Part shown: positions 1 to 17,609 of the stretch, in pieces
Position numbering within the stretch: the first letter of the stretch is position 1
Layout of the letters: every line of letters starts with the position of its first letter
Origin: Lentisphaerota bacterium
GTDB taxonomy: Bacteria; Verrucomicrobiota; Kiritimatiellia; RFP12; UBA1067
Direction: 5' to 3'
Length of the DNA stretch: 64,000 nt
Assembly: GCA_015061665.1 (NCBI GenBank)
Contig: SUWC01000001.1
Location: forward strand, 35,737-99,736
Notes under the pieces: generated by a model
The model's database searches: none
Told to the model about the DNA's origin: nothing
The model's input: only the letters and a program-made list of their open reading frames with translations
Program-made: the position numbers and the translations under genes

Positions 1-957
1 GTTGAACATTGCCTCTATTTCGTCGCCCGAATACTTGATCGGCACTTCGTCCTTCGCCTCGCCTATGTCGCTTGCAGCAGCCGAAACTGTCAAAGTTCCG
101 TTGGAAAAGCGAAGTTTTGTTGAATGCGCCTCGTCCATCGACATTACACTTGCTCTTTCAAGGGCATTAACGAAAAGCTGACGATCAATCACTATGCTCT
201 GGGCGAAACTCTGGGGAATAACCTGCTTGTAGTTCGGATATGTGTCGTCAACAAGCTTTGAGAATATCGAAATATTCCCTAAGGTAAAGCGAACCTGCGT
301 ATTCTGAACCATCACCTTGATGTCGCCTTCGCTTCCGAGCGACCTCTGAAGCTCCTGAACTGTCTTCGGAGGCAGAATTATGTCCTTTTCCGCGTCAACA
401 GGCACTTCCATCTCGTTTTCAACAAGTGCAAGGCGGCGTCCGTCTGTCGCCACCATTGTAAGCTTGTTGCTGCGGAAGCTCATCAAAACACCCTTGAGGG
501 TCCTGCGGGTGTCATCCTGTGACGCTGCATAGGCAGTTTTGCGGAGCATTTCCTTCAAAACCGTCTGGCTAACACTGTACTCATAGCTCGTTTCGTCGGA
601 GGGCAACCTCGGAAAGTTTACCTCGGAAAGACCTGTCAGCTTGAAATTCGCCGAACCTGCCCTGATTTTAGCCTTTTCTTCCTCGTTTACCTCAATTCCG
701 ATGACTCCTTCGTCCGCACATGATATCGAGTTGAACAGAAGCTTCACAGGCAGTGTGGTCTTGCCGGGTTCCTCGGTTTCGCATTCAACTTCGCAGACAA
801 TCGATATGTCGAGGTCAGTAGTAGTCATCCGGAGTACCTTGCCTTCGGACTCAAGAAGGACATTCTGCAGCACAGGCAGGGAAGCCTTCGAATTGACGAC
901 ATTCTGGACCGCCTTAAGTCCTTCGATGAACTTGGATCTTATGATGTTAAACTTCAT
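1..957 (-). CDS. dnaN: DNA polymerase III beta sliding clamp (5' part; gene continues beyond window start)
   Basis: Minus-strand ATG at 957 gives MKFNIIRSKFIEGLKAVQNVVNSKASLPVLQNVLLES, a typical beta-clamp N-terminus. It lies directly downstream of dnaA on the same strand (the classic dnaA-dnaN pair). The six-frame track misses it because the ORF runs off the window. Confidence 0.8.
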   Translation of the reverse strand, partial: MKFNIIRSKFIEGLKAVQNVVNSKASLPVLQNVLLESEGKVLRMTTTDLDISIVCEVECETEEPGKTTLPVKLLFNSISCADEGVIGIEVNEEEKAKIRAGSANFKLTGLSEVNFPRLPSDETSYEYSVSQTVLKEMLRKTAYAASQDDTRRTLKGVLMSFRSNKLTMVATDGRRLALVENEMEVPVDAEKDIILPPKTVQELQRSLGSEGDIKVMVQNTQVRFTLGNISIFSKLVDDTYPNYKQVIPQSFAQSIVIDRQLFVNALERASVMSMDEAHSTKLRFSNGTLTVSAAASDIGEAKDEVPIKYSGDEIEAMFN

Positions 958-1232
958 TTTGATTTCCTTTGACTGGTTGACCTTTTACAACTTTCATCAA
1001 CACGCTTCTGATTGTACCAAATATGACTAATAATATAAAGAGTCTTTGTATTATTATTATAGATGTTCACAATGTTGATAAATCAGTTTTAGCATTGATT
1101 TTATTGGGTTTTTCGCGTTTTTTTCTGTTGATGGAAAGTTAATCTTCATGATTGCGTCCTGTTGCCAACTTTCGGGGCTGTTGATTGCTGTAGACAACTT
1201 GCGCGGTTATGGGCCATGTTGTCGACAGGTTT
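958..1232. other. Candidate oriC segment: AT-rich unwinding element plus DnaA-box-like motifs (dnaA-dnaN spacer)
   Basis: AT-rich stretch around 1020-1130. Five TGTTG(A/C)-type motifs, the reverse complement of TTATCAACA-like DnaA boxes, at about 1074, 1125, 1160, 1179 and 1217. The best one is TGTTGATAA at 1074-1082. Confidence 0.45.
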
Positions 1233-2681
1233 TCAGCTGAGCGAAAGATCCTTTCCGTCCGTCAGTTTGTAGCCGAATTCGGACAGTATTTCCTCCAGTG
1301 TCTGCTTGAGGTCGTTCTCCACGTCGAGCCTTTTCTGGATGGTTTTTACCCCATGTAGTATAGTTGCGTGCTTTTTCTCGAACTTTTCGGCAATTTCCGG
1401 CAGGCTTTTTGCCGTAAACTTGCGTGAAATGTACATTGCGAGCTGTCTTGGGGTAACAAGTGACGCCGTTCGCTCGGTAGAAAGTATGGATTGGACGGTT
1501 ACGCCGTACTTTTTCGCTACCGCAGCCTGGATTTCCTCGACTGTTAGTTTTTTTATCGTCTGCTCCTTGTCGATGAAGTCCTTCAGTAGCTTTGAAAGAA
1601 GTATTGGCGATAGTTCGGCTGTAGGGCTGTTTGAAATTATCACCTTTACCTTTGCCAACGCACCTTCCATTGCCCTAACATGCGTTTTGATGTTTTCAGC
1701 AATGAATGTCAGCGTGGAAATTGGTATAGGTGGACGGTAGCTTTCGGATTTTTTCTGCAGAATTGCCAATCTAGTCTCATAGCTAGGTGACTCGATCTCC
1801 TGCACCATTCCCCCGACGAATCGCGATATCAACCTTTCTTCAAGTGCCGGAAGGTTCTTTGGTGCGACGTCAGAGGTCATCACAATCTGCTTTTTCTTTC
1901 CCTGAAGGTAGTTGAAGGTGTTGAAGAACTCTTCCTGGACGATTTTTCCCTTCTGGAAGAACTGCACGTCGTCAACAAGCAGTACGTCGATGTTTCGGTA
2001 TTTCTCTCGAAATGAATTTATCTGACCGTTTTGCAGGTAATTGACGTATTCATTAAGAAATGTCTCTGCTGTAAGATAGCAGATGGCCATACCTGGGTTC
2101 TTGCGCTTCAGCTCGTTACCGATTGCCTGCATCAAGTGGGTTTTTCCAAGTCCGGTCCCGCCGTGTATGAACAACGGGTTGTAGCCGCTCTCCCCTGGAT
2201 GCTTGACCACTCCTTTCGCAGCTGAATATGCCCAGCTGTTTGATGGACCGGCAACGAATTCGTCAAATGTGTATTCGTCGCGAAGCGGCATAGTCGAAAT
2301 GAATGTAGTCGCCTGGTGCTGTGGTGTAATGGATAGTTCTGGCAATCCCGGTGTCTGGGATTTCTGGGCGGTCGGCGGTATTATGATTGATGGACGCTTT
2401 CTTTCGTCTAGCTTGAACTCCATCTTCAAAGCTGGGTTTGCTCCCACCAACGTCAAGCAACCTTTTATTCGTGTCGCATAATTAGACTGAAGAAAATCGG
2501 CTGCAAATGAATTGGTGGTGTAAAATCGGAAAACGTCATCATCTGTCTCGACGCTTGAGATCATTGAGAAATACCGCTCCATCTGATCCTTTTCTTCCTG
2601 GGTCGGTAGGGACGAAATATATACTGTCTTGGCCCTGTCCCACAGGTCCTTCGACGCCATGTCTATTGTTTCGTTGCTCAT
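1233..2681 (-). CDS. dnaA: Chromosomal replication initiator DnaA
   Basis: 482-aa ORF with AAA+ Walker A GGTGLGKTHLMQAIGN and a C-terminal DNA-binding region. Classic gene order with dnaN downstream. Confidence 0.95.
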   Translation of the reverse strand: MSNETIDMASKDLWDRAKTVYISSLPTQEEKDQMERYFSMISSVETDDDVFRFYTTNSFAADFLQSNYATRIKGCLTLVGANPALKMEFKLDERKRPSIIIPPTAQKSQTPGLPELSITPQHQATTFISTMPLRDEYTFDEFVAGPSNSWAYSAAKGVVKHPGESGYNPLFIHGGTGLGKTHLMQAIGNELKRKNPGMAICYLTAETFLNEYVNYLQNGQINSFREKYRNIDVLLVDDVQFFQKGKIVQEEFFNTFNYLQGKKKQIVMTSDVAPKNLPALEERLISRFVGGMVQEIESPSYETRLAILQKKSESYRPPIPISTLTFIAENIKTHVRAMEGALAKVKVIISNSPTAELSPILLSKLLKDFIDKEQTIKKLTVEEIQAAVAKKYGVTVQSILSTERTASLVTPRQLAMYISRKFTAKSLPEIAEKFEKKHATILHGVKTIQKRLDVENDLKQTLEEILSEFGYKLTDGKDLSLS

Positions 2682-2744
2682 TTGTCTATTCTTCCTATTT
2701 TTCGCCCTCTATAATAGCATAAGGGGGATTGAAAATCATCAAAA

Positions 2745-2830
2745 AGAAGTTATCAACATTTCACCAAGTTATTAACAGGCTGTCAACATTTGTAGATAGT
2801 TGTCAAAGAAGTATTGTACCACTATATATT
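2745..2830 (+). promoter_or_regulatory. DnaA-box-like cluster upstream of dnaA (autoregulatory or origin-associated)
   Basis: TTATCAACA at 2750-2758, TTATTAACA at 2769, CTGTCAACA at 2780 and GTTGTCAAAG at 2800, in an AT-rich spacer between the dnaA start and the mnmG stop. Confidence 0.4.
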
Positions 2831-3040
2831 GTGTCGCATAATCTAGATGACAGAGACTATTATGAGCCATTGCTTATTGATCGCTTTCTTTGGTATTTCG
2901 ATATATTCCGACTGCATCCGATTTGCTAGTGATAGCTATATAATAATTATCAATTCAATATAATACAGTTTATAGCCTTCAATTCTTACCATCTGATTAT
3001 CTAGATCATATTTTGCCCATGTAGCCTCTAACATCGCATT

Positions 3041-5281
3041 TTATACGTGCCCGCGCTTAATGATGATTGCCAAAACTAAAATGTCAGATGGGTTTACGCC
3101 CGGTATTCTCGATGCCTGGCCAAGATTATCAGGACGAATCTTCTTCAGCTTTTCCCTACTCTCGTATCTAACAGCAACACACTTATCGTAGTCAAGCCAT
3201 GCAGGGATTGCAATGGATTCATCATCTTTTGCCTTTTCTGCAGCCTTCTTTTCCTGATCAATATACGGTGAATATTTAACTATGATTCGAAGTTCGTCTA
3301 GGATTTCTTTTTTCGTAAAGTACGAAGCAATTTTCTCATTTTGAGACATCATTTGAACTAGTGAAGCCTCAATATCATCTGGAATTATATGATTCGCATT
3401 CCATTTTTGTCCGATTAGTTTTCCACTTTGAATTTGCAGCCAATTCATAACTGATGCGATACATTCAAGTTCGTCCGGTTTTTTGATACCCACGTAAGCA
3501 GCAATATTGTTTAGACGAAACCTTGCATTGTCCTGACGAAGTATCAACCTGCGTTCCGCCCGGCTTGTAAACATGCGATAAGGTTCATCAGTCCCTTTTG
3601 TCACAAGATCATCTATTAGAACTCCTATATATGCATCTTGTCTGCTCAATACTATTTGTGGTTTTTTTGAAGCGTTTAGGGACGCATTAATGCCCGATAT
3701 AATTCCTTGGGCTGCCGCTTCTTCATATCCTGTCGTTCCATTGATCTGTCCAGCGAAATACAATCCACTTACATGCTTCGATTCGAGCGTATGCCTTAGT
3801 TCGCGTGAATCTATAGCATCATATTCAATTGCGTATGCATAGGCCAAAAATTCTGCGTTTTCAAGTCCTGGTACGGAATGAACCATTTTTTCCTGTACAT
3901 CTCGTGGTAGACAGCAGCTCAGTCCGTTTGGATAAATGACTGTACCAGCAGAGTCTTCCGGCTCGAGTATTACATGATGTTGTTTGACATCTTTAAAACG
4001 TACGATTTTATCTTCGATGGAAGGACAATATCTAACTCCAGTGCCAGATATTTTTCCGCCGTATAGAGCTGATTTCTCGAGATTGTTTTTAATTATTTCG
4101 TGGGTTTCTTGTGTCGTATGCGTTAACCAACAAGGAAATTCAGGTAAATTATCATATGAGTTGTGAGTTTTGTTCCACGTGGAACAATTATCTAAACGTT
4201 TATCGCTTTTGTTTTCACCCGTAGTGCCTTTGCAGGTATTAAATTGTCCATTTTGAGGCTCTTGAGTTGCTACGGGTTCATCTAAATTGTTCCACGTGGA
4301 ACAAATTGACAGGGAATGTTGCTCCTTGAAGTAATACGGTGAGATAAATTTCAAAAACATGTCATCCAAACTCCGAGTATTGGGTTTATGCGACATGTTC
4401 CACGTGGAACAATTTAAATTTCTGGTATTTATAAATTTTTGCTGTTGATAGTCGTGGTGAAATAGCGGATGTGGTATTTCGCCATTTTGAGGCTCACATT
4501 TTGAGAAGTTACATGATGAAGCCTTAAGTCGAGGAGGGGTTCCTGTTTTAAGGCGGATTAAATGAAATCCTAGGGACTCCAGCGAGCTAGACAGCTTGTT
4601 AATTGCTGGACGTCCATCGCCGCCTGATTCAATACACTCCTTACCGATCCAAATTCTGCCACGCAAGGATGTACCTGAGGTTATGACGATTGATTTGGCG
4701 GTATATACATTACCAGAGTCGGTCTTGACACCAATAGCGCAAATATTGTCACGCGATTGGTTGCAATATGTGAAAGTATCAACTTTTGTATTGTTGATAG
4801 TGTTGATATCTCTGTTGATATTTGGGGTATTGACAATACCGGATTCGATAAGTTCAGGATTGTTTATGTTATTATGTGTAATGTCTTCTGTGAGAATAGA
4901 TGTAGCAGCTTCTTCGACTACAGTGAGGTTGGGTTGCCGCAGGACGACGTTTTGTAATCTGGCTGTGTATTCCTGCTTTGCACATTGCGTCCTGGTTGCC
5001 CAAACAGCTGGACCACGGCTAAGATTGAGTGTCTTTGACTGAAGGGCAGTTGCATCTGCATTGCGCCCCATCTCGCCACCAAGTGCATCGATCTCGTAGA
5101 CGAGGTGGCTTTTTGCGAGTCCACCAATTGCCGGATTGCATGGCATTCGCCCTATGGCGCCGATCTGTGATGTAATGAGAAGAGTGGATGAACCCATGCG
5201 TGCGGACGCGAGTGAGGCTTCGACTCCTGCGTGACCGCCGCCAATGACTATGACGTCGTAAGAATTGGAAGGTTTGTTCAT
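3041..5281 (-). CDS. mnmG: tRNA uridine-5-carboxymethylaminomethyl modification enzyme MnmG (GidA), with an in-frame insertion of about 115 aa
   Basis: N-terminal FAD motif [21 protein letters not shown]. Conserved LKTGTPPRL and [11 protein letters not shown] blocks, but about 115 extra residues sit between them. Total 746 aa against the usual 620-630. Confidence 0.9.
4170..4500. repeat. AT-rich, roughly 110-bp tandem repeat (3 units) inside the mnmG ORF, each unit carrying the perfect palindrome GTTCCACGTGGAAC
   Basis: Palindromes at 4172-4185, 4289-4302 and 4397-4410. Units also share CCATTTTGAGGCTC. Translated on the minus strand as CSTWN x3 and EPQNG x2. The reading frame is preserved. 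Confidence 0.8.
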
Positions 5282-5404
5282 AACACCTAGATTATATCAT
5301 TTATTTGGGGGATTTGTGAACAGGCTATGTTAATAAGTTATGCGAAGGAATTAAATCTATCAAATTGCAAAAAAGCCCGTATTTATTGGGTAAAATCGAC
5401 TTTG

Positions 5405-5480
5405 GGCATGCTTGTCAACAGTGAAAATATAATATGATGTAAACAGTTATAGCAAAGTTATCAACAGAGTTTGTTAACAT
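5405..5480. promoter_or_regulatory. Divergent promoter region of mnmG and the downstream gene, with DnaA-box-like TTGTCAACA/TTATCAACA motifs
   Basis: TTGTCAACA at 5412-5420, TTATCAACA at 5458-5466 and TTTGTTAACA at 5470, in an AT-rich spacer. Confidence 0.35.
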
Positions 5481-5498
5481 GAAGACAACATTATTGAG

Positions 5499-6449
5499 AT
5501 GGTGAATCCTATGCAGTGGAAACTTTCGAGTAGGCTGGATAACCCCCAACTGACGCTGGATATTGAGATATGGTATAATAAGGGGGTGAAAATAATATTT
5601 TTGTTTATTGACGGCGTGGGGATGCGCGAGGCGGCTGCGGACAATCCTGTCAACGAGGAGGTTTGTCCGACGCTAATGCGCCTGATATCCCGCCATGCAA
5701 AGCCGATTGACGCATGTCTCGGCGTGGACGGCCTGCCGCAGAGTGCGACAGGGCAGGCAACAATGTTCACGGGAGTAAACTGTTCCGCTGCCATGGGAAG
5801 GCACTGCGAGGGCTTCCCGGGGCCGTCTCTTCGTCGCATAATAGAGGAGAACAATCTCTTCCTCCAGCTCAAGAAGCGCGGCCTAGCCGTCAGATTTGCG
5901 GATGCATATCTTGTCGATTCGGCTGACGACCTTGCAGCGAGGCGCTTCAAATCGGTTACAACGGTCATGGCGCTCACGACTCCCGAGGTGATAACGACTG
6001 TCGATGACCTCAAGCAAGGTCGGGCACTTATGCAGGACCTGACGCGCGAGACTATCCAGGAGCGGTACCCGGACTGCCGCGTCATATCGCCAAAACGCGC
6101 CGCGGAGGATCTTGCCGAAATAGCGCACGACTATGACTTCACCCTCTACGAGTTTTTCCAAACGGATGTGTCTGGACACTCGATGGACTACGCGCGTGCG
6201 TGCGCAGTGCTTCGGACGTACGACCAGTTTCTGTCGCAGCTGATCCGGCTTGTCGAGATCGAGGGCATAACGCTCGTCATGACGGCCGACCACGGGAACA
6301 TAGAATGCATGACTGAACGCGGGCATACAAGAAGCCCCGTGCCTTTCATTGCATATGGTCCGCGTGAGTCAGACCTGCGAGATCAGGTTGAATCGTTGAT
6401 CGACGTCACCCCCGCGCTGCTGAGGGTTTTCGACAGCGTCGGGAGGTAA
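5499..6449 (+). CDS. Alkaline-phosphatase-superfamily metalloenzyme (cofactor-independent phosphoglycerate mutase / phosphopentomutase-like)
   Basis: IIFLFIDGVG near the N-terminus and LVMTADHGN near the C-terminus are characteristic of the iPGM/DeoB metalloenzyme fold. Start is uncertain: alternatives are GTG near 5585 after AAGGGGG, or ATG at 5624. Confidence 0.55.
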   Translation: MVNPMQWKLSSRLDNPQLTLDIEIWYNKGVKIIFLFIDGVGMREAAADNPVNEEVCPTLMRLISRHAKPIDACLGVDGLPQSATGQATMFTGVNCSAAMGRHCEGFPGPSLRRIIEENNLFLQLKKRGLAVRFADAYLVDSADDLAARRFKSVTTVMALTTPEVITTVDDLKQGRALMQDLTRETIQERYPDCRVISPKRAAEDLAEIAHDYDFTLYEFFQTDVSGHSMDYARACAVLRTYDQFLSQLIRLVEIEGITLVMTADHGNIECMTERGHTRSPVPFIAYGPRESDLRDQVESLIDVTPALLRVFDSVGR

Positions 6450-6530: not shown

Positions 6531-6607
6531 GGGGCTGTAGCTCAACTGGATAGAGCATCAGACTACGAATCTGAGGGTTGTGGGTTCGACTCCCGCCAGC
6601 CCCGCCA
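6531..6607 (+). tRNA. tRNA-Arg (anticodon ACG)
   Basis: GGGGCTGTAGCTCAACTGGATAGAGCATCAGACTACGAATCTGAGGGTTGTGGGTTCGACTCCCGCCAGCCCCGCCA. Cloverleaf with anticodon loop CTACGAA, encoded CCA. Confidence 0.9.
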
Positions 6608-6620
6608 GTCGAAACCAGAT

Positions 6621-6697
<77 letters not shown>

Positions 6698-6732
6698 AAT
6701 TCCGTGAAGATCTGGCTCACGGCGACACACGG

Positions 6733-6809
6733 CGGACCGTAGCGCAGCCTGGTAGCGCGTTTGCTTGGGGTGCAAAAGGTCACGAGTTCAAATCTCGTCG
6801 GTCCGACCA
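6733..6809 (+). tRNA. tRNA-Pro (anticodon GGG)
   Basis: Acceptor CGGACCG/CGGTCCG, anticodon stem TTTGC/GCAAA with loop TTGGGGT, T-loop TTCAAAT, CCA end. Confidence 0.85.
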
Positions 6810-6859
6810 CCTTGCAGAAGGTGATGCGTTGTGTTTGAGGTGCGGATTCGCACAATTAT

Positions 6860-6933
6860 GGTGGGATGGCCGAGCGGTTAGGTAGTGGACTGCAAATCCA
6901 CGTACAGCGGTTCAACTCCGCTTCCCACCTCCA
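6860..6933 (+). tRNA. tRNA-Cys (anticodon GCA)
   Basis: Acceptor GGTGGGA/TCCCACC, anticodon stem GTGGA/TCCAC with loop CTGCAAA, T-loop TTCAACT, CCA end. Confidence 0.85.
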
Positions 6934-9624: not shown

Positions 9625-10231
9625 GGTTGTTGTAATCGACGATCATGCGGTCGTGAGGATGGGGCTGAAGTACATGCTCGACGTCCACAAGAGCGAATTT
9701 GCCTTCGCCGGCGACTGGCCGAAGGGCGAAGGCGCGGCGCAGTTCGTTATGAAGGTCGACCCCGACCTTGTGCTTCTCGACATCCGCATGCCCGACCGCG
9801 ACGGAATCGCCGTGCTTGAGGACATACTTCTCATGCGCCCGCAGCAGAAGGTCATCATGCTCACTACGAGCGACGCGGACAACGACGTCTACCGCGCGCT
9901 GAACCTCGGGGCAAGGGGATACCTGCTGAAGGACCGCGACGCCAACGAGATACCCGACGCAATCCACCGCGTCATGAACGGAGGGAAATACGTTCCCGAT
10001 GTCGTGATGGAGCTGTTCCGCAAGCGGCAGATGACGGCGAACCTCACGCCGCGCGAGGAGGAGGTAATGAAGCATCTCCGCGACGGCCTCACGAACGAGA
10101 CGATCGCGACACGCATGGGGATCACCCGCGATTCGGTCAAGCTCCACCTCAAGAACATCTTCGCAAAGCTCGGCGTCAGCGATCGCATATCGGCGCTCCG
10201 CGAAGCCGTCACGCGCGGGTTCCTGCACTGA
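9617..10231 (+). CDS. NarL/FixJ-family response regulator (REC + LuxR-type HTH)
   Basis: MVKVVVIDDHAVVRMGLKYML...LDIRMPDRDG receiver; C-terminal LTPREEEVMKHLRDGLTNETIATRMGITRDSVKLHLKNIFAKLGV. It overlaps the kinase stop by 8 nt. Confidence 0.9.
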   Translation: MVKVVVIDDHAVVRMGLKYMLDVHKSEFAFAGDWPKGEGAAQFVMKVDPDLVLLDIRMPDRDGIAVLEDILLMRPQQKVIMLTTSDADNDVYRALNLGARGYLLKDRDANEIPDAIHRVMNGGKYVPDVVMELFRKRQMTANLTPREEEVMKHLRDGLTNETIATRMGITRDSVKLHLKNIFAKLGVSDRISALREAVTRGFLH

Positions 10232-10273
10232 AATGCGGCACCGCGCATTGCCGGAATTTGGTAAAATAGGGGC

Positions 10274-12328
10274 ATGGCGAAAAAACTGTGTACCTTGATT
10301 CTCGCGGCATGGGCGCTTGTCCGGACGGACGGCGCGTTCGTGCCGATTACGCGCGAGGACGCCGCCGAGGGGCGGGAGGTCTGCGTAACAGGAGTCGTGA
10401 CCGCGGTCGCCTACTGGCAGAAGAACAGCTGCATAGTGGCCTCTGTCGACGATCCCGACGGCATGGCGGTCTACGTGGCAGGCGAGCATCCCGACAGCAA
10501 TCACGTGGTGATCGAGGACGGCCCGGTCGAGGTAGGCGACGTGCTGGAAATCAAGGGCCGGACGATTCCAATGCTGTTTTCCCCGGGGATCTACGCCAGG
10601 AGCTTTGCGCGGATATCGCGCAAGAAGCTTCCGCCTGCACCCCTCAGGTCGCTGTCGGACTTTGGGTTCGGCGTACTCGACAACAGGCGCACCCGCATGG
10701 CCGGGGTGGTTTCACATGTGACCGAGTCGCAGACGAACCAGGTCGAGATGACGCTCGCGACCGCGCAGGGCAATGTCGACACTCGTGTGCGCGCGCCGTT
10801 CGAGGCGGCGAGGAGGCTGCTTGACGCCGAAGTTCTCGTGGAAGGCGTCGCAATGAGCAGATACAACCTCCGCGCGGAATTTCTCGGCATCCGCCTCGAG
10901 GTAAACTCGATTGACGACGTCAAGGTCACGAAGAACCCTCCTCCCGACCCGTTCTCGGCGAGGCGCACGCCGCTTAACGCGATCCTGTCGTGGCGTCCTG
11001 AGGGACACGACGGACATCGCTGCGTCGTGCGAGGAACCGTTACTGCAACAGGCGTCGACGGTGTTTTCTACATGCAGTCGGGCGAGTGCGCCGTTCGGGC
11101 TAAGGCGTTCGAGGGCCGTGCGCCGCGGGCAGGCACCGCAATCGAGGCATCCGGATTCCCCGAGATGATCGGCGATGTCGGACAGCTTGTCGACGTGCTC
11201 TGGCGCGAACTGCCGGTAGAGCCGGAGCGCATCGATCCGATAGAGATCGGCCTTTCGAACATAACGAACGTTTCGTTCAATTCCGACATTGTCTTCAACA
11301 ACCTCGACTGCCGCCTTGTATCGCTTTGCGGACGCCTGTTCAGAATAGAGAGGATGTCCGGCGGCTTTGACATGATAATGGACGTGGATGGCGCGAGCGT
11401 GGGCGTAATCGTGCATGGCGAGATGCCGCGCTGGATAGCCGACGAGCTTGAGTATCTGCCCCTTGTGTCCGTCTCCGGCATAATGCGCATCGCGACGGCC
11501 GACGGCGCAAACGGCCGCAGGCCCGGCGTATCGGCCGTGTCGATCGAGGTGCAGGACCAGTCGGCCGTCCGCTTCGTCCCCGACGGAGAGTGGCGCGAGA
11601 GGAGGAATGCGCGTATGCTCGTCGTCGCGCTTTATGTGTTTGGCGGACTGCTGTCTGTTGCCGGCATCTGGCTTGTGTGGCGCGTGCGACAGCGCGCAGC
11701 GCGCGAGAGGTTTCTGCTGGCCGAGCGAAGGCGCATGGCCGACGACCTTCACGATACGATAGAGCAGCACCTGGCCGGCGCCCGGATACTCCTCTCCACG
11801 GCCGTGGACAACATGCCGGCGGACGGCGAGGCTAGCGCGAAGGCGCTTTCGATGGCGCAGGAGGTTCTTGGCGAGGCGAAACGCCAGATTCGCGACGTAA
11901 TCATGAACCTGCGGCAGGAGGAGACGATTGCGAAGCCGCTCGAGGAACTGCTTGCGGCTGTCGTCTCCGAACTGAACGCACGCGGCATAGCCAAGTCGAG
12001 GATGCGCCTGAGGGGCGTGCCGAAGGACCTCTCCGCGAGCGCGAAGGCAGACGTCCTGGCGATCGTCCGTCAGGCGGTCGCGAACGCGATGAAGCACGGC
12101 GGGGCGAAGAACATCGTCATCGTCAGCGATCCTGCCGGCGAAGGGTTCGTGCTGAAGATACTGAACGACGGCGCGGAGTTCGACGCATCGTCCGCGCCTG
12201 GACCCGAGGCGGGGCACTTCGGGCTCTCCAACATGCGCGAAAGGGCGCGAAGGAGCGGGTTTTCAATCGCGTGGTCGCGCGAGGGCGCGTGGAACTGCGT
12301 GGTGCTTGCGAGAGGAGTGAAGAGATGA
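10274..12328 (+). CDS. Sensor histidine kinase (HisKA_3 type), paralogue with a larger periplasmic domain
   Basis: N-terminal signal, a periplasmic region of about 420 aa with OB-like modules, a TM (LVVALYVFGGLLSVAGIWLVW), H-box HDTIEQHLAGARILL and HATPase_c (NAMKHGGAKNIVI...GLSNMRERA). Confidence 0.85.
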   Translation: MAKKLCTLILAAWALVRTDGAFVPITREDAAEGREVCVTGVVTAVAYWQKNSCIVASVDDPDGMAVYVAGEHPDSNHVVIEDGPVEVGDVLEIKGRTIPMLFSPGIYARSFARISRKKLPPAPLRSLSDFGFGVLDNRRTRMAGVVSHVTESQTNQVEMTLATAQGNVDTRVRAPFEAARRLLDAEVLVEGVAMSRYNLRAEFLGIRLEVNSIDDVKVTKNPPPDPFSARRTPLNAILSWRPEGHDGHRCVVRGTVTATGVDGVFYMQSGECAVRAKAFEGRAPRAGTAIEASGFPEMIGDVGQLVDVLWRELPVEPERIDPIEIGLSNITNVSFNSDIVFNNLDCRLVSLCGRLFRIERMSGGFDMIMDVDGASVGVIVHGEMPRWIADELEYLPLVSVSGIMRIATADGANGRRPGVSAVSIEVQDQSAVRFVPDGEWRERRNARMLVVALYVFGGLLSVAGIWLVWRVRQRAARERFLLAERRRMADDLHDTIEQHLAGARILLSTAVDNMPADGEASAKALSMAQEVLGEAKRQIRDVIMNLRQEETIAKPLEELLAAVVSELNARGIAKSRMRLRGVPKDLSASAKADVLAIVRQAVANAMKHGGAKNIVIVSDPAGEGFVLKILNDGAEFDASSAPGPEAGHFGLSNMRERARRSGFSIAWSREGAWNCVVLARGVKR

Positions 12329-13032: not shown

Positions 13033-13117
13033 GCTCGGGTGGTGAAATTGGCAGACACGCATGCTTGAGGTGCATGTGGAGAGATCCTTGCGGGTTCGAG
13101 TCCCGCCCCGAGCACCA
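13033..13117 (+). tRNA. tRNA-Leu (anticodon GAG)
   Basis: Acceptor GCTCGGG/CCCGAGC, anticodon stem CATGC/GCATG with loop TTGAGGT, long variable arm, T-loop TTCGAGT, CCA end. Confidence 0.85.

Positions 13118-14931: not shown

Positions 14932-17609
<2,678 letters not shown>

Follow-up and report, generated by a model that had tools for sequence, protein, structure and literature searches.

Evidence for an origin-proximal parS array within a predicted disordered loop of MnmG in an uncultured Kiritimatiellia bacterium

Palindromic sites within the mnmG gene

The DNA analysed here is a stretch of 64,000 nucleotides (hereafter the window) from contig SUWC01000001.1 of an uncultured Kiritimatiellia bacterium (assembly GCA_015061665.1, positions 35,737 to 99,736). 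The minus-strand open reading frame (ORF) at 3041..5281 is the mnmG (gidA) gene, and one loop of the encoded protein contains three copies of a 16-bp palindrome that are very probably parS sites, forming an origin-proximal array. parS is a centromere-like DNA sequence bound by dimers of ParB, a chromosome-partition protein. A preliminary description of this stretch, made from the letters alone, had drawn attention to the palindromes and read them as part of an AT-rich repeat inserted in frame into mnmG.

The host gene of the array encodes a product of 746 amino acids, which is unambiguously the MnmG/GidA tRNA U34 modification enzyme. It matched MnmG entries of the PDB in phmmer searches (E values of 1e-149 to 1e-132) in three stretches collinear with the solved proteins, and both PF01134 (GIDA) and PF13932 (SAM_GIDA_C) of Pfam were found in it. 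The protein is about 117 residues longer than its E. coli counterpart. The preliminary description had given the excess as about 115 residues and had placed it between the conserved LKTGTPPRL block and a block resembling CYITHT. Alignment with solved MnmG proteins, a check that this description had proposed, divided the extra length between two insertions. One of them, loop 1 (aa 132-180; nt 4742-4888), had been missed. The other, loop 2 (aa 276-377; nt 4151-4456, minus strand), lies where the description had put it and holds all three palindromes. It appears as a gap in the PDB alignment between query residues 275 and 378, adds some 95-100 residues between LKTGTPPRL and the PCWLTHT block, and maps between residues 248 and 256 of E. 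coli MnmG.

Both insertions are predicted to be disordered loops. In the AlphaFold model used (83-sequence alignment; mean predicted local distance difference test score, pLDDT, of 67.7; a 22-sequence model with a pLDDT of 52 was set aside), many blocks of the core scored 88-97. Residues 136-177 and 266-383 scored 26-45 and showed essentially no secondary structure. The idea of a tolerated surface loop is thus borne out by the position on E. coli MnmG and by these low scores.

The 14-mer GTTCCACGTGGAAC is present, as first described, in three copies and no more; they start at 4172, 4289 and 4397. Each is the centre of an exact copy of the 16-mer TGTTCCACGTGGAACA (starts 4171, 4288 and 4396), and no further match to the latter was found in the window even when up to three mismatches were allowed. 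The longer 18-mer TTGTTCCACGTGGAACAA is exact at two of the sites and has an A as its first base at the third. Three or more matches of the palindrome word were reached in none of 100 dinucleotide-preserving shuffles; the observation is real and non-random. The whole array spans 241 bp. Read in the direction of the gene, the first site (4396..4411) encodes CSTWN at aa 291-295, the second (4288..4303) the same pentapeptide at aa 327-331, and the third (4171..4186) again CSTWN at aa 366-370; no strand is assigned to any of them.

The surrounding DNA fitted the earlier picture less well. Tandem Repeats Finder returned no tandem repeat in the palindrome region, and the supposed units of about 110 bp, once stripped of their 16-mers (108, 108 and 117 nt), aligned with each other no better than with shuffled versions of themselves. 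A tandem repeat of this period is ruled out by these two results. Apart from the palindromes, what recurs is some 20-34 nt around each of them and a single word of 14 nt (CCATTTTGAGGCTC; positions 4248 and 4482), which is not kept in a relative whose MnmG is 94% identical. Rfam and tRNA scans gave nothing in the palindrome region. Loop 2 does have a lower GC content than the remaining gene, as had been claimed, but the difference is modest (37% versus 44%); the larger contrast is between a low-GC island to which the gene belongs (42-46%) and the rest of the window (about 61%). The peptide repeats that had been listed were likewise only partly upheld: CSTWN occurs three times and EPQNG twice, but the first EPQNG is part of the conserved core of MnmG, QQHGD being its counterpart in the alignment with the E. 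coli protein, and the second is absent in the 94%-identical relative.

Conservation and distribution of the word

The closest MnmG homologues are 53-94% identical to the window's protein, and one of them is named Kiritimatiellae. When genome contigs were searched with this protein, the sole relative matched was L001, from a Kiritimatiellia metagenome-assembled genome (MAG). The DNA of relatives was examined at nine loci (L001, L002 and L005-L011; MnmG 56-94% identical). In all nine, the same mnmG loop carries between two and six copies of the word, which occur in frames 0, 1 and 2. The peptides found at these places, CSTWN, FHVEH/FHVEQ and VPRGT, are exactly the three reading-frame translations of TGTTCCACGTGGAACA. 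The exact 14-mer encodes 36 of the 37 peptide motifs at the nine loci, and the remaining motif departs from it by one synonymous TCC-to-TCT change; the motif codons are near-identical though the GC content of the genes spans 39-57%. One site of L006 (position 10933) has the canonical form TGTTTCACGTGAAACA and lies in a permissive frame (VSRET). Beyond the mnmG loop no copies were found, either in the window or, at up to two mismatches, in 186 kb of the relatives' flanks.

In an alignment of the loop DNA from the window, the 94% relative and a 75% relative, the 16-mers stand out as islands of perfect identity amid diverged, indel-bearing sequence, and the window's sites are conserved in L002 and L009 while their flanks diverge. 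At least one motif was present in every one of the best 120 MnmG homologues, and at least two in 119 of them. Loop 2 is otherwise hypervariable in length and sequence among relatives. Their MnmG proteins range from 590 to 940 residues, and this variation lies in the same two loops. Site spacings are regular in L010 (72, 75 and 72 nt) and in L006 (93, 93, 96 and 96 nt) and look like the result of recent duplications; the spacers of the window have diverged. Because all three frames are used and synonymous variation is close to nil, the conserved entity is the DNA word and not the peptide, and one inherited in place rather than mobile. Conservation of the DNA independent of its coding context, as looked for in a chromosomal parS, was therefore found.

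A fourth site may once have been present. In nearly all relatives the peptide PLFHVEH, encoded by an exact parS word, stands where the window has PLFHHDY. The corresponding sequence, TATTTCACCACGACTA (4449..4464, minus strand), shares 9 of 16 positions with the parS word; for its left half, compared with TGTTTCAC, the agreement is 7 of 8. Judging from the alignment, from the sequence and from the frame-1 sites of the relatives, this is the probable ancestral position of a near-universal first site that has decayed in the window's sub-clade, leaving a 7/8 half-site. In this sub-clade the three frame-0 sites would do the job of the decayed one.

The arrangement extends further. Five more distant MnmG genes from metagenomes (37-46% identical) have the word in the same loop, where it reads "...DLFHVEH/Q...". 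A homology search with one of the five, L070, led to MnmG proteins of Verrucomicrobiae/Limisphaerales; among the matches listed, FHVE[HQ] follows TGTPPR by 30-90 residues in 119 of 120 Verrucomicrobiae proteins, with two copies in 110. By this count the arrangement is common to Kiritimatiellia and Verrucomicrobiae.

An exact 16-mer scan of metagenome contigs yielded at least 120 stretches. Genes for mnmG, dnaA, parA or parB were found within the stretch in 62 of the 120 listed, and in 35 of the 57 listed that are 5 kb or longer; no close relatives of the window's organism were among the 120. Since more than half of the listed stretches (the 62 above) carry one of these genes, the 16-mer marks partition or origin neighbourhoods in unrelated bacteria (26-74% GC).

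Two observations from the same scan concern mnmG and its neighbours elsewhere. In three Bacteroidota-like mnmG genes (L025 at 1174, L060 at 1802 and L061 at 4603) the exact word lies in the C-terminal helical region and is read as (N/F)VPRGT, a placement that suggests that mnmG acquired parS independently in a further phylum. In a frameshift-ridden, Firmicutes-like gut contig (L062, position 1075), the 16-mer lies inside rsmG (gidB) and is read CSTWN; rsmG adjoins mnmG, mnmE and a ParB/Noc-like gene there.

Correspondence to parS and origin context

The 16-mer of the window is letter for letter the same as parS2 and parS3 of Pseudomonas aeruginosa (PMC4368675, PMC5098823). These two are perfect palindromes and have the highest in vitro affinity for ParB among the sites of that organism (PMC4368675); in vivo they are occupied by ParB in chromatin immunoprecipitation (ChIP) sequencing, with spreading over more than 20 kb (PMC5098823). 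TGTTCCACGTGGAACA is also the parS of P. putida and is one base off the Myxococcus xanthus site (PMC7022226). The general chromosomal parS consensus is TGTTNCACGTGAAACA (Livny et al. 2007 as cited in PMC7022226). As regards sequence, then, the window's word both fits this consensus and equals an experimentally bound site. Its intragenic position is normal for parS, because coding sequences contain nine of the ten sites in P. aeruginosa (PMC4368675). In the canonical parS, TGTTTCACGTGAAACA, one reading frame on each strand is interrupted by a TGA stop. TGTTCCACGTGGAACA is free of stops in all six frames and can therefore be embedded freely in ORFs; the C/G variant may be favoured because it fits any ORF frame.

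The correspondence with characterised systems is close in some respects and partial in others. The P. aeruginosa and P. putida arrays share with the present one the identical 16 bp, the clustering of sites within a few kb of oriC/dnaA and the mostly intragenic location (PMC4368675, PMC5098823, PMC7022226). In Pseudomonas, however, the four main sites are distributed over about 16 kb in different genes and spacers, whereas here the whole array occupies 241 bp of one gene's loop, and the host is an uncultured Kiritimatiellia bacterium known without a characterised ParB. The parS of Bacillus subtilis in spo0J is likewise an origin-proximal palindrome of 16 bp; its core is CACGTG, and the ORF that contains it is left intact. 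The window's word differs in being the symmetric C/G variant and in residing in mnmG rather than parB. As in M. xanthus, Corynebacterium glutamicum and Streptomyces, several closely placed parS sites would make up one centromere region near the origin (PMC7022226). Those arrays comprise 10-24 sites over tens of kb near parAB, in contrast to the two to six sites found here, all of them in one protein-coding loop that has no parAB within 10 kb.

About 1.5 kb separates the array from dnaA (1233..2681, minus strand), which is directly downstream of mnmG and marks an origin-proximal region. The orthologous gene in L002-L010 matches Bac_DnaA of Pfam and is followed by dnaN. The order Metalloenzyme gene, mnmG, dnaA, dnaN was found in each of three independent assemblies of the 94% relative, and other Kiritimatiellia loci show it with one inversion.

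A low-GC island of about 6-8 kb (window 1-5500) covers mnmG, dnaA and dnaN, with 42-46% GC against about 61% elsewhere; GC at third codon positions of mnmG is 37%. The dip recurs around mnmG-dnaA-dnaN in L001, L002 and L006-L008, so the island is a conserved property of the origin region, not a recent transfer. A chimeric contig was considered as its cause and is ruled out, because gene order and GC dip alike are reproduced in the three independent assemblies and in relatives that are more distant.

Among the 8-mers of the island, TATCAACA is the most over-represented, and its 9-mer form, TTATCAACA, differs from the E. coli DnaA box at a single position. A copy of the 9-mer in the mnmG-dnaA spacer (2750..2758, plus strand) is conserved in position among relatives, as is the placing of the box upstream of mnmG; further copies lie at 1073-1081 (minus strand) and 5458-5466 (plus strand), and none was found in the window beyond 8 kb. 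In L002, five to eight such boxes are clustered in a conserved spacer (17367-17485) about 6.3 kb from the parS array, and equivalent clusters are present in L001 (18096-18157), L006, L008 (4136-4250), L009 and L133. This spacer, which in relatives separates a coiled-coil gene from a helix-turn-helix gene, is probably oriC, and would lie just outside the window, before position 1. With dnaA some 1.5 kb away, a gene order that repeats and a cluster of DnaA-box-like sequences, the array has the origin-proximal location of a chromosomal parS.

Loop 1 of MnmG (4742..4888, minus strand; 33% GC) is without parS. Within it TATCAACA occurs as three direct words (4792, 4801 and 4813), spaced 9-12 nt apart, which are found only in the window's close relatives (L002 and L009, with one in L005) and could be extra DnaA-box-like sites or merely repeats of I-N codons. 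Just past the GC transition, four clustered tRNA genes (Arg-ACG, Met-CAT, Pro-GGG and Cys-GCA) occupy 6531-6933; a tRNA-Leu-GAG gene lies at 13033-13117.

Several results weigh against identifying the sites as a working parS array. A regular-expression search of all ORFs of the 64-kb window gave nothing resembling ParB or ParA. Nothing significant was found either in a tblastn search with B. subtilis Spo0J and Soj, which covered the window and, with flanks of up to 10 kb on each side, 13 loci from relatives; these queries do detect parA and parB beside the 16-mer in metagenome stretches. In a Verrucomicrobiae contig (L132; mnmG at 10001-11992), no dnaA, dnaN or parAB lies within 10 kb of the parS-bearing mnmG, so the support from origin proximity does not extend to it; mnmG being apart from dnaA in this contig, the mnmG-dnaA link is specific to Kiritimatiellia loci. 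Literature searches on ParB or chromosome partitioning in Kiritimatiellota gave nothing pertinent, and it is by analogy that we infer ParB binding, spreading and a segregation function in this organism. ParABS homologues have been reported in Akkermansia muciniphila, a member of Verrucomicrobiota (PMC10197239), and par genes are near-universal, having been reported absent from a few bacterial families only (PMC4368675, PMC7022226).

Alternative explanations and significance

The preliminary description had left a choice between a repeat tolerated in a loop and an innovation at the protein level. The former would be a selfish element resembling a miniature inverted-repeat transposable element (MITE) or a Rickettsia palindromic element, inserted in frame three times, or once and then duplicated, in a tolerant loop of mnmG. 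Rickettsia palindromic elements are in-frame selfish repeats within genes; they are dispersed, patchy in occurrence and similar to one another over their whole length of about 100-150 bp. They resemble the present case in being palindromic DNA that is tolerated in frame in housekeeping genes and adds a surface peptide segment, so that a precedent exists. The palindromes could act as terminal inverted repeats (arms of 21-24 nt, 92-95 nt apart), a direct repeat of 14 nt borders part of the region, and the loop is somewhat AT-rich. Yet the 16-bp word alone is shared here, at one locus; the segments between palindromes are unrelated, with no similarity over an element of 100-150 bp, and the 14-nt repeat is already absent at 94% identity. 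The description had proposed a search for the palindrome elsewhere as a measure of mobility, and the lack of dispersed copies in 64 kb (up to three mismatches) and in 186 kb of mnmG flanks from relatives speaks against mobility within that sequence. Nor is the occurrence patchy: the word occupies the same loop in 239 of the 240 homologues listed, across two lineages of the Planctomycetes-Verrucomicrobia-Chlamydiae (PVC) group, which is the pattern of an inherited cis-element, and it equals a known protein-binding site. An origin as a mobile repeat is consequently judged extremely unlikely.

We regard as exceedingly improbable, too, that the insertion is a lineage-specific MnmG repeat domain in which CSTWN and EPQNG have a structural, metal-binding or interaction role. 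That the frame stays open through every insertion and that pentapeptides containing Cys, His or Trp recur would agree with such a role. The three peptides that relatives have at the same place are unrelated to one another, however, and are translations of a single DNA word that shows next to no synonymous variation (identical codons in 36 of 37 motifs, at gene GC contents of 39-57%); the sequence between motifs is unconserved and variable in length, the region is predicted to be disordered, and EPQNG is not kept even in the 94%-identical relative. Other kinds of cis-element were also considered, such as the operator of a different palindrome-binding regulator, a DnaA-related origin element or an mRNA structure controlling mnmG-dnaA expression. 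Any two copies can pair as RNA duplexes of 16-24 bp, the half-site TGTTCCACG is loosely like a DnaA box, and the region adjoins dnaA. An RNA structure would tolerate covarying changes, though, and the word is invariant across phylum-level distances. The palindrome is ruled out as a DnaA box, the clade's evident and repeated box being a different word, TTATCAACA. The exact 16-mer, moreover, is a site that ParB is proven to bind, and in metagenomic bacteria unrelated to this one it marks the surroundings of parAB, mnmG and dnaA, all of which makes an element other than parS very unlikely.

If the sites are parS, the ParABS literature suggests how they would work. ParB dimers would nucleate on the three sites, load as sliding clamps dependent on cytidine triphosphate (CTP), and spread across the surrounding 10-20 kb or so of the origin region. 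ParA would then move the partition complex and SMC condensin would be recruited, so that newly replicated origin regions are segregated and organised. Selection would act on the DNA word, and the loop peptides would be whatever the word spells in the local frame; the extra peptide of the MnmG loop is very probably a by-product of keeping parS sites. The array would grow and shrink through in-frame duplication and loss of parS-bearing segments, which would account for MnmG lengths of 590-940 residues in the clade. We lean, by a small degree, towards the broader proposal that in two PVC lineages the centromere has long been housed in a single disordered loop of MnmG, where selection for ParB-binding DNA, not for protein function, would give rise to a peptide insertion, preserve it and enlarge it. 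MnmG would in this way reach 940 residues, compared with about 625 in the clade's shortest forms.

Neither parS nor this exact sequence is new, and parS sites within genes are likewise known. The novel aspect is a conserved, expandable array in one mnmG loop, read in three frames and present in two PVC lineages. No report of parS in mnmG (gidA), or of a centromere array housed in one MnmG loop, was found in the searchable literature, outside which Livny et al. 2007 lies. The arrangement may be an undescribed example, and an unusually clean one, of a cis-acting DNA element that dictates the sequence of a protein.

Under the parS reading, sequence alone would suffice to locate the centromere and the origin region in the genome of an uncultured member of Kiritimatiellia, which should aid the orientation and checking of MAGs and be useful in designing ParB ChIP or Hi-C work. 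For annotators the finding is a caution that these MnmG inserts would be neither MITEs nor inteins nor new domains, and CSTWN, FHVEH/Q and VPRGT could be used as fingerprints of embedded parS in protein databases. It would also explain why MnmG in this clade is heterogeneous in length and has odd inserts of low complexity, and would offer a natural demonstration of a protein-binding DNA word as the selected unit within an ORF, with three frames and three peptides arising from one 16-mer.

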